Shown: positions 33,325-35,257 of the stretch, piece after piece
Layout of the letters: the number at the start of each line of letters is the position of its first letter
Position numbering within the stretch: position 1 is the first letter of the stretch
Assembly (NCBI GenBank): GCA_031262205.1
Contig: JAISID010000020.1
Coordinates: 1-63,155, forward strand
DNA length: 63,155 bases
DNA from: Holosporales bacterium
Lineage (GTDB): Bacteria; Pseudomonadota; Alphaproteobacteria; RUG11792
Direction: 5' to 3'
Translations under genes and position numbers: made by a program
The notes under the pieces: model-generated
Told to the model about the DNA's origin: nothing
Databases searched by the model: none
Seen by the model: only the letters and a program-made list of their open reading frames with translations

Positions 33325-34173
33325 ATGTTTAAAAAATTTGTAGGAATTATCATATGCTGGATTTTTTGCATAGAAACAGGAATAACGGCAACGACTTATA
33401 ATCATTCCGATGAAAAACATCTTTCTTTATTTTGTTCCTTGACGGAAGAAAAGCAAGTTGCAATATTGGACAATGTTTTTTCATCAATATCAACTGAAAA
33501 TCAATTAACTTTTATGAAAGGATTATGTTCGCACTTTGACGCAGATGTTTTAGCTGGAGCTTTATCTATTTTTCTTGAAGGCGAAAGTGACTGTTATAAA
33601 AAACTATTGTCGGTGTTATGCCTCAACGACACAGAAAGTTCTGCTGTTCCTTCGCCATATAAAGAATTAACTAGTCTTGCATTAAACACATTGTTACAAA
33701 AACAATCAAAGTCTGGCATAGGATTATTTTGTACGCTATATCCTTTATTAAAGCCTGACGATCAAAAAAGCGAAGCATCAAAGTTCTTATCTTCCGAATC
33801 AAGCTCTACTATGTTTAAAAAAGCAATTACGGACGTTCAAAGAAAAGTTTTTATGTTATGCGAAGGGGCTCGTTGTCATCTGAATGATTTTTCACGAAGT
33901 GGGCAAGACTGGGAATTAAATCAAGCGGTAGGAACGTTAATTTGTTGTAAAAAACTGACGAACGATTCACCTTCTTATTTTGTAACCCTTGGCATATTAT
34001 GTTATCAATATGGCGATAAATTGGATGTTAAACAATTAGAAATGCTTGGATTAACAATAGAACGCCAGAAAATACCCGAGCATGGAATATTCTTATTAAA
34101 ACAAGCTGCAAAAAATGATTCTATGGCGGAAGAATATTTGGCGACACATTATACTGGAGATGAAGATGAATAA
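33325..34173 (+). CDS. Hypothetical exported helical protein, upstream partner of the deaminase-like gene
   Basis: GGAGG upstream. Signal-like MFKKFVGIIICWIFCIETGITA. No recognised family; the C-terminus has a possibly Sel1/TPR-like flavour (weak). Confidence 0.5.
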   Translation: MFKKFVGIIICWIFCIETGITATTYNHSDEKHLSLFCSLTEEKQVAILDNVFSSISTENQLTFMKGLCSHFDADVLAGALSIFLEGESDCYKKLLSVLCLNDTESSAVPSPYKELTSLALNTLLQKQSKSGIGLFCTLYPLLKPDDQKSEASKFLSSESSSTMFKKAITDVQRKVFMLCEGARCHLNDFSRSGQDWELNQAVGTLICCKKLTNDSPSYFVTLGILCYQYGDKLDVKQLEMLGLTIERQKIPEHGIFLLKQAAKNDSMAEEYLATHYTGDEDE

Positions 34174-35257
34174 CATAAAAATAGGGTTATTTCTCTTTTT
34201 TGTTCTTTCAAACTTATCCTTTGTAAAAGCGGCTGAGGAAGCTCCGCTCCGTATTTTCGTTAATGATATCTTAACAAATTGCGATACAGTAGAGGAAAAA
34301 GCTGTTGATGGGAAAAACGCCATAGTCGTTCCTCCAGGCAATACGTTTTTAAGCGGCCTTTTCCCTACTGTGACAAGTTATCAAGTAGACGGAGAAATTG
34401 AATTTGCAGACATTGTATTAGAAGACGCCGAGGCTAGATCGCTCATTAAAAAGAATGCATTGATCATGAAATTAACCGCTTTGGAAGAGAATATTCCGAG
34501 TGATTCTATTTCTACATTGTCTAAATTGTCTAATGCAGCAAGAATAAATACTCTATTAGAAGAAGTTGATCACGCGCCTTTTTTAAGCGATAGTTTAGAA
34601 GGTTTGAGAGGACAACTTGCATGTATTGGAGCGGAAAAGGATACTTTAATAGTAGAAGTTTCCGAATTATTAAATACTTACATTACAAAAGCAATAGTGC
34701 TTCTTCGCGAACGTAGTTTCAAAGAAAAAACAGGGAGTGCTATAGAAGAATTAGAGCGGTGTAGAGCTTTGTCTTACGAAGACAAACTAGCTTTCTTTAG
34801 GGGGAGAGAGGCTCAAAATCTACGCAGTGTTATACATAGCGAAGATGTAATACTTTACAGCTTGTTCAAAGGAAAATATCCAAGCCCAAGCATCGATCAT
34901 CTTACCGTAACGTATTCTACTAGCGATATGTGCTCAGAATGCGATAAAAGTTTTAAACCAGATATAATCGGGGAATTATTACACCAATCAATGCTTCGTA
35001 TGATCTACTTTTCAACTCGGGCAGGAACAACGACACAGGGAGTTGATTATCAGTATAGGCCACATGAACCTGCACCAGATAAACGATTAATAAATCCTAC
35101 GAGGCAAAACACACATACAGATACAAAGGTTACGCATGTGAGAGTGCAAAGACCCGATAAAGCGCAACGCTCATCAAAGCCAGTACCAGCAGACGAACAA
35201 GGTAAAATTCTTGAATTTGGAGTCGGCGTAAAAAGTGCAAATTATGCAACTGAATGA
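34160..35257 (+). CDS. Hypothetical exported protein with HxE...CxxC (zinc deaminase-like) signature
   Basis: The start at ATG 34160 or 34166 overlaps the upstream stop. Signal-like MKMNNIKIGLFLFFVLSNLSFVKA. H-S-E lies at 34835-34843. C-S-E-C lies at 34931-34942, 29 residues later and right after the hydrophobic strand HLTVTYST. Confidence 0.5.
   Translation: MKMNNIKIGLFLFFVLSNLSFVKAAEEAPLRIFVNDILTNCDTVEEKAVDGKNAIVVPPGNTFLSGLFPTVTSYQVDGEIEFADIVLEDAEARSLIKKNALIMKLTALEENIPSDSISTLSKLSNAARINTLLEEVDHAPFLSDSLEGLRGQLACIGAEKDTLIVEVSELLNTYITKAIVLLRERSFKEKTGSAIEELERCRALSYEDKLAFFRGREAQNLRSVIHSEDVILYSLFKGKYPSPSIDHLTVTYSTSDMCSECDKSFKPDIIGELLHQSMLRMIYFSTRAGTTTQGVDYQYRPHEPAPDKRLINPTRQNTHTDTKVTHVRVQRPDKAQRSSKPVPADEQGKILEFGVGVKSANYATE

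Follow-up and report, generated by a model that had tools for sequence, protein, structure and literature searches.

The question raised by the present locus is whether two adjacent genes, lying between xseA and a tRNA-Val gene on a contig assigned to a Holosporales bacterium (JAISID010000020.1), belong together, and what their products do. The window, the whole stretch of DNA that was analysed, is the complete contig of 63,155 bp (37.8% GC). In a first-pass annotation the two genes, here named p1 and p2, had been described as same-strand open reading frames (ORFs) encoding a coupled pair of Sec-exported orphan proteins, the second with a zinc-deaminase-like signature. Both ORFs were present on the plus strand, p1 at 33325-34173 (282 amino acids (aa), a putative exported partner) and p2 at 34166-35257 (363 aa). 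The main new result is that the pair is a conserved cassette of two gene families.

The orphan status of both proteins held, as neither p1 nor p2 was matched in Pfam, NCBIfam, PADLOC, PHROGs or the PDB sequences. A comparison of p2 with Pfam-A at E ≤ 10 returned no family, Pfam and PHROGs likewise recognised no family in the p2 homologues, and neither single-sequence nor profile searches of the PDB sequences (phmmer and hmmsearch) gave more than noise. A word-indexed search of 5.8 billion clusters recovered only the p1 and p2 of the window itself. The exhaustive phmmer scan of 1.84 billion cluster representatives with p2 returned, in addition to p2, P0004 (423 aa), whose alignment covered residues 37-300 at E 4e-7, and P0005 (400 aa, E 5e-6); P0006 (414 aa) was added by a profile search. 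P0003, also returned by the scan, was discarded as a repeat-rich artefact with 13 short matched stretches. No relative of p2 was found in the GTDB species genomes. Two scans of the JGI metagenome contigs, for which the family alignment was headed by p2 in one and by P0006 in the other, confirmed none, and viral contigs and a plasmid tblastn search added none. The p2 family has four members, at 24-27% identity to p2, and is real but extremely rare. p1 and p2 are two new protein families.

The p2 homologues were not found alone. A p1-like gene was located directly upstream of a p2 homologue, on the same strand, in three further loci: L032 (9099-9983), L033 (34-735) and L034 (4647-5381). Residues 175-272 of p1 were homologous to the C-terminal ∼100 residues encoded by all three upstream genes, with BLASTP E values of 1e-11 (L032) and 4e-14 (L033) at 32-33% identity, and a phmmer E value of 4e-8 for the L034 partner. 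In every locus carrying either family (4/4) the two genes were neighbours on one strand, in an unchanged order. The genes overlapped in three of the four, by 8 nt in the window and by 4 nt in both L033 and L034, while a gap of 17 nt separated them in L032. The ordered pairing in all loci, together with the overlaps, therefore points to a conserved, translationally coupled cassette, the coupling being predicted from the gene junctions in three of the four loci, and the proposal of a coupled pair of exported orphan proteins is extended beyond the window.

The coupling junction of the window (34156-34173, plus strand) reads GGAG-ATGAAGATGAATAA, with GGAG at 34156-34159 and ATGAAGATGAATAA at 34160-34173. 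Three in-frame starts are available to p2 (34115, 34160 and 34166), and the first-pass annotation had left the choice between the latter two. GGAG abuts ATG 34160, but is placed 6 nt before ATG 34166, and because of this spacing ATG 34166 is the likelier start, yielding the protein of 363 aa; the database entry P0001 is also 363 aa, as from ATG 34166. That the start of p2 overlaps the stop of p1 was borne out, the 8-nt overlap being ATGAATAA and the p1 TAA lying at 34171-34173. Candidate expression signals for the pair (33266-33317, plus strand), located by consensus scan, sequence and composition, are found upstream of p1 in an AT-rich (∼28% GC) spacer that follows the divergent xseA. They comprise a sigma-70-like box, TTGTAA-17-TAAAAT, at 33266-33294 (from a consensus scan in which the number of promoter-like sites was not above that in shuffles) and a Shine-Dalgarno sequence, GGAGG, at 33313-33317, 7 nt before the p1 ATG at 33325.

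Signal-like N-termini had been noted on both proteins, and both do combine basic residues with a hydrophobic core of 12 residues (Kyte-Doolittle 2.3-3.0) and candidate cleavage sites at small residues. In p2 the candidate cleavage site is VKA|AE and the putative signal peptide comprises residues 1-22. A signal-peptide-like N-terminus and no other transmembrane-like segment were found in p1, p2 and six homologues (8/8), each having a basic n-region, a core of 10-15 residues and small residues at -3 and -1, as expected of Sec signal peptides. These calls were made with a simple hydropathy and cleavage-rule script.

p1 consists of the signal-like N-terminus, MFKKFVGIIICWIFCIETGITA, a variable middle with 12 cysteines and a conserved helical C-terminal domain (33847-34140, plus strand; residues 175-272) with the motifs LNDF, LG.xC[YH], G..LL and DS.A..YL. 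In an alignment of the p1 homologues the cysteines were unconserved. A resemblance of p1 to Sel1-like/TPR repeats (LG..Y...A..YL) is by eye only, and no Sel1 or TPR repeat was matched by Pfam at E ≤ 10 in any of the four p1 family members. In p2 the putative signal peptide leads into a conserved N-domain; a variable helical region connects this domain to the C-domain, which is also conserved, and a polar tail ends the protein. From the alignment of the four members the N-domain was placed at 34259-34480 (plus strand; ∼residues 32-105), with D48, K50, N51, S63, G64, F66, P67, T68, Y72, E79, D82 and I83 invariant, and the C-domain at 34778-35053 (plus strand; ∼residues 205-296), with R220, E226, D227, Y231, S251, D254, C256, C259, F263, V293 and D294 invariant. 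The C-domain contains the HSE and CSEC motifs on which the deaminase assignment was based.

The explanation that we favour, at roughly even confidence, is a two-gene operon for two cooperating Sec-exported proteins, with p2 as a secreted effector and p1 as the helper exported with it. Coupled translation would supply p1 and p2 in fixed proportion, and both would cross the inner membrane via Sec. The helical C-domain of p1 may then bind p2 in the periplasm, perhaps at the N-domain of p2, and act as a chaperone, an adaptor or an inhibitor. p2 would subsequently be released and act outside the bacterial cytoplasm, most likely on a eukaryotic host. The C-domain would be the working end of p2, with E226-D227 and D254-x-C256-x-x-C259 forming a metal-binding or thiol-based active site. 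If the C-domain is an enzyme, its chemistry probably has no known relative; a deaminase-type zinc site is unlikely and a redox CxxC more unlikely still.

Holosporales is an order of protist symbionts. A eukaryotic host is the probable target because of this affiliation, because no immunity-type gene accompanies the pair and because an NleD-like pair neighbours one of the cassettes. The absence of a conserved ORF downstream of the p2 homologues in the four loci likewise fits a target other than sibling bacteria. The effector context comes from L033, in which a second pair, directly downstream of the cassette (2218-4280), encodes a leader protein of 177-181 aa and a signal-peptide protein of at least 507 aa, the genes overlapping by 4 nt. 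The larger protein is cut by the contig end, contains a HELIH motif and matched Peptidase_M91, the NleD-type effector family, at 29.2 bits against a Pfam cut-off of 25. The M91 pair resembles p1 and p2 in having a small leader protein followed by a large protein with a signal peptide, and its cassette of promoter-like box, ribosome-binding site (RBS) and leader is the same as that of the L033 p1 homologue. It differs in that the large protein is an HExxH metalloprotease with other domains than p2. Members of the p1 family matched the 177-aa protein of L033 (E 2.7e-10 with the L033 partner and 5e-8 with the L032 partner, none with p1 of the window), but these matches looked confined to a common 5′ leader, outside the p1 C-domain.

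Several points weigh against an effector and its helper. Export, interaction and secretion of p1 and p2 are predictions, and the effector context is indirect, being one neighbouring pair in one locus. No outer-membrane route for p2 was identified in the window; the only secretin there (41293-42954) is next to comF, dprA and radC, and its function may lie in competence or in pili. The conservation statistics are thin, as they are drawn from four members only. It could also be that p1 and p2 serve the envelope of the bacterium itself.

The alternative that survives best is the one originally put forward, in which the p2 C-domain is a divergent zinc-dependent nucleic-acid or nucleotide deaminase, Sec-exported and delivered to a target cell, with p1 as its immunity factor or chaperone. 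H224, C256 and C259 would bind zinc and E226 would act as the proton shuttle. We consider this identity unlikely. The motif was found as described, H224-S-E226 at 34835-34843 and C256-S-E-C259 at 34931-34942, E226 and C256 being separated by 29 residues. However, [HC]xE-x20-40-CxxC occurred in 0.24% of p2 shuffles, and among the 87 window ORFs of 100 aa or longer a second one contains it by chance. Owing to this shuffle rate and the second ORF, the motif alone is weak evidence, and weight falls on its partial conservation in remote homologues. Conservation of the H/E/C/C set had been a prediction of the assignment, and it was upheld for three of the four residues: E226, C256 and C259 are invariant among the four proteins in spite of their low identity, with an E-to-C spacing of 24-29 residues, but H224 is present only in p2, P0005 and P0006. 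The corresponding residue of P0004 is a tyrosine (AYTED), whereas the described deaminase clades use H, C or D as the first ligand (Iyer et al., PMC3239186).

The layout was likewise only partly that of a deaminase. The glutamate, the CxxC, their spacing and a preceding hydrophobic strand-like segment are in place, and further strand-like segments follow, which could match the C-terminal-hairpin division (PMC3239186). The proline that would precede the first cysteine is absent, this residue being M, I or L in the four members. The ∼100 residues before HxE are variable, indel-rich and helix-like, and appear helical rather than as a beta hairpin, both from the sequence and in low-confidence models; a deaminase sheet would therefore need to draw its strands 1 and 2 from the N-domain, far away in the sequence. 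A candidate second zinc ligand, in the ICQ[VI]R of the homologues, was dropped since the cysteine is a threonine in p2 by manual alignment.

No Pfam deaminase family, toxin clades included, was matched at E ≤ 10 by any of the four members, nor was one matched by p2 in NCBIfam, and the PDB sequence searches with phmmer and hmmsearch gave no member of the superfamily. The AlphaFold2 models of p2 had a mean predicted local distance difference test score (pLDDT) of 33.8 when the p2 sequence alone was supplied and of 34.3 with the four-sequence alignment, too low to be of use. A Foldseek search with a model of pLDDT ∼34, a confidence too low for the outcome to carry meaning, gave no match at E ≤ 0.001 and no deaminase among the 50 matches listed. 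Alignment of the family by hhalign with TadA, Cdd, RibD-N, TrxA and DsbA of E. coli was insignificant throughout, and the control pairs TadA-Cdd and TrxA-DsbA were undetectable likewise; the test is powerless because single-sequence profiles fail to link even TadA to Cdd. The best local path to TadA places AH[ST]ED on AHAE and [FY]S..D.CxxC on YVTLEPCVMC, but it is insignificant (P 0.17, probability 0.4%) and reuses the motif that prompted the idea.

Precedents exist for several of the features. With described toxin deaminases (PMC3239186) the p2 family has in common a putative signal peptide at the N-terminus, an H-[ST]-E with a strand and CxxC-[KR] 24-29 residues further on, and strand-like segments behind the CxxC helix; the Pput_2613 clade is described as having HTE and PCxxCK (PMC3239186). 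The p2 family departs from the toxin deaminases in matching no clade profile, in having tyrosine as the first ligand in one of four members, in lacking the PC dipeptide and in showing no recognisable strand 1 or strand 2 before HxE. Deaminase effectors without immunity genes, the OTT_1508-like clade, are found in the endosymbionts Orientia, Rickettsia, Wolbachia and Amoebophilus (PMC3239186). This clade and DddA (PMC7901873) resemble the pair in belonging to bacteria associated with eukaryotes (probably so for the pair), the lack of an adjacent cytoplasmic immunity gene and the same hypothetical chemistry. Unlike p2, they are delivered by a type VI secretion system (T6SS), a type VII secretion system or a Photorhabdus virulence cassette, and they match deaminase profiles, whereas the p2 family matches none and appears to be Sec-exported. 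An immunity protein bearing a signal peptide, moreover, would not protect the cytoplasm. The H-to-Y substitution weakens the deaminase identity, which we regard as unlikely; equally unlikely is the wider proposition that p2 represents a very divergent, Sec-exported deaminase-fold clade with a periplasmic partner, through which protist endosymbionts would edit or mutate host nucleic acids. The description of the module as unusual was in any case overstated, since Sec-dependent toxin deaminases and immunity-less endosymbiont deaminases are already on record (PMC3239186), and even a deaminase here would be a new clade and not a new kind.

The CxxC may instead belong to a thioredoxin/Dsb-like or other redox module acting in the oxidising periplasm, so that the pair would serve folding or redox reactions of the bacterium's own envelope. 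p1 and p2 both look Sec-exported, and in periplasmic proteins a CxxC is more often a redox disulfide than a zinc site. The local pattern, strand-[DE]-hydrophobic-C-x-x-C-[KR], is shared between p2 (FSLNDMCPDCRKKF) and E. coli TrxA (FWAEWCGPCKMI) and DsbA (FFSFFCPHCYQF), and p1 contains 12 cysteines, although the p1 homologues do not conserve them. No Trx or Dsb family of Pfam was detected in any member, and hhalign against TrxA and DsbA gave probabilities of 0.1-0.3% without coherent alignment of the CxxC. No proline is conserved in all four members after the CxxC, and a conserved candidate for the cis-proline is missing. The extreme rarity of the family, and its occurrence in mobile or effector-like contexts, would also be unexpected of housekeeping redox proteins. 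A redox role is therefore considered improbable.

Little probability is also given to an interbacterial toxin/immunity module acting in the periplasm, with p2 as an envelope-targeting toxin and p1 as its periplasmic immunity protein. Effectors that act in the periplasm and their immunity proteins both carry export signals, as the two products do, and the genes are tightly linked with apparent translational coupling. One copy is in a mobile context (L034), and in L032 a gp25/TssE-like baseplate gene is 6.5 kb away. No known peptidoglycan-hydrolase, lipase or pore-forming family was found, however, and an immunity gene placed upstream and encoding a protein nearly the size of the toxin would be atypical. 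Variation in p2 is confined to the middle, with both ends conserved, so there is no polymorphic C-terminus. With regard to the polymorphic toxin systems (Maf, contact-dependent inhibition and Rhs), no trafficking domain was detected in the Pfam scans and, as stated, no conserved downstream ORF in the four loci. Classical polymorphic systems are usually absent from endosymbiotic and endoparasitic bacteria (PMC3239186), the lifestyle presumed here. Three other assignments were dropped: a c-type cytochrome for the lack of CxxCH, a cysteine protease for the lack of an invariant histidine, and an ADP-ribosyltransferase for the lack of the R-S-ExE order.

For the favoured reading of an exported effector with an exported helper, the nearest analogue in layout is MafA-MafB(-MafI) of Neisseria (PMC4287609). 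There too a gene for an exported protein (mafA) is placed immediately upstream, in the same operon, of the gene for a secreted protein dependent on a signal peptide. MafB, like p2, has a conserved N-domain and, as proposed for p2, a C-terminal working domain, and has no established outer-membrane route either; the C-terminus of MafB19 constitutes a deaminase clade (PMC3239186). p1 and p2 have no sequence relationship with these proteins, with no match to DUF1020 or MafA, and a lipobox is absent from p1. Neither a downstream immunity gene nor C-terminal cassettes are present, the C-terminus of p2 being conserved and not polymorphic. Lacking the sequence relationship, the polymorphic C-terminus and the immunity gene, the pair is not a member of the Maf group.

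Orphan exported proteins are common in host-associated bacteria, and what distinguishes the present pair is the conserved pairing and the conserved E-D...D-x-C-x-x-C site. If the pair is an effector and its partner, it adds two new families and a recurring layout, in which the gene of an exported helper precedes that of an exported effector, in poorly studied Holosporales-like bacteria of gut and rumen metagenomes that are presumed protist symbionts. Should the C-domain prove to be a deaminase, it would constitute a new clade in a superfamily that has already been a source of base-editing tools, and a small single-domain deaminase free of an immunity protein could have a new substrate specificity.

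The cassette looks horizontally mobile, a view suggested by gene neighbourhoods. Genes for a MobA/MobL relaxase and a TraD-like protein, along with a fragment of an IS110-type transposase, are located just upstream of the L034 cassette (555-4166) and within 3 kb of it, which implies that this copy belongs to a plasmid or to an integrative mobile element. In the window the pair takes the place of a tRNA gene: 12 of 15 related Holosporales loci (L001-L019) carry tRNA-Met(CAT) immediately upstream of xseA, whereas the window lacks it and has the AT-rich spacer (32972-33324, ∼28% GC) and the pair on that side of xseA. Relatives of p1 or p2 were absent from 31 xseA loci of related bacteria and from the remainder of the window. 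No repeat of the tRNA-Val 3′ end flanks the pair, as might be seen in a genomic island. GC content over the pair is 29-40%, lowish at the 5′ end but not sharply foreign.

A common 5′ segment was observed at L032 8290-8409 and 8979-9128, at L033 1-63 and 2110-2259, and at L034 4527-4676. It combines a promoter-like box (TTGAC..TGTGATATAAT-like) with the RBS GAGGTG and a leader, M(RCF)MFGKISKLAL, that is nearly the same throughout, and it is shared by unrelated genes, namely those for the p1 homologues, for the 177-aa protein and for a protein of 429 aa that PDDEXK_2 matches weakly. Its distribution suggests that this 5′ cassette was spread by recombination. In L032 the gp25/TssE-like baseplate gene (GPW_gp25, 37 bits) occupies 3141-3993 together with the gene of a 158-aa orphan beside it, ∼6.5 kb from the cassette; the baseplate gene may be part of a contractile injection system or a T6SS.

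The bacterium is Holosporales-like, as read from its XseA and the permuted type of its transfer-messenger RNA, and is a probable associate of protists. xseA (31637-32971, minus strand) was identified by an Exonuc_VII_L match (E 7e-83), and its product is 62-71% identical to XseA of uncultured Holosporales and Alphaproteobacteria metagenome-assembled genomes from termite gut, rumen and similar sources. The 3′ neighbour of the pair is tRNA-Val(GAC) (35882-35956, minus strand), and housekeeping genes are found around the pair, among them gltX-like, prs, tilS, xseA, an ATP-binding cassette substrate-binding protein, radC, dprA, comF, the secretin, metG and pyruvate dehydrogenase E1. A non-coding stretch of 425 bp in the interval from p2 to the tRNA-Val 3′ end is enclosed by a 20-nt direct repeat, CCCCTTGTATTAYCAAYGTT (35392-35411 and 35817-35836, 18/20 identical), which is unrelated to that 3′ end. 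The repeat is unique in the window and absent from all 39 loci compared, and could be the scar of an insertion or a deletion.

A third orphan ORF, of 285 aa, is located between xseA and tilS (30421-31278, minus strand) and has a signal-like N-terminus, MKVLLRFAFVLLGSGIVYG. It had no match in Pfam or PADLOC, and its match in PHROGs was non-significant (phrog_36210, E 0.089). xseA and tilS are adjacent in the related locus L019, and the ORF may be another inserted exported or effector-like gene. Elsewhere in the window a permuted (two-piece) transfer-messenger RNA gene was identified at 22740-23099 (minus strand), with the tag peptide ANRNRRSKKLAGNLNRKSAAKKAA. Unrelated to the pair, an OGG-type 8-oxoguanine glycosylase, an O6-methylguanine methyltransferase and a uracil-DNA glycosylase-superfamily protein are encoded in tandem at 13051-14757; the last of these would be relevant should this organism produce a cytosine deaminase.

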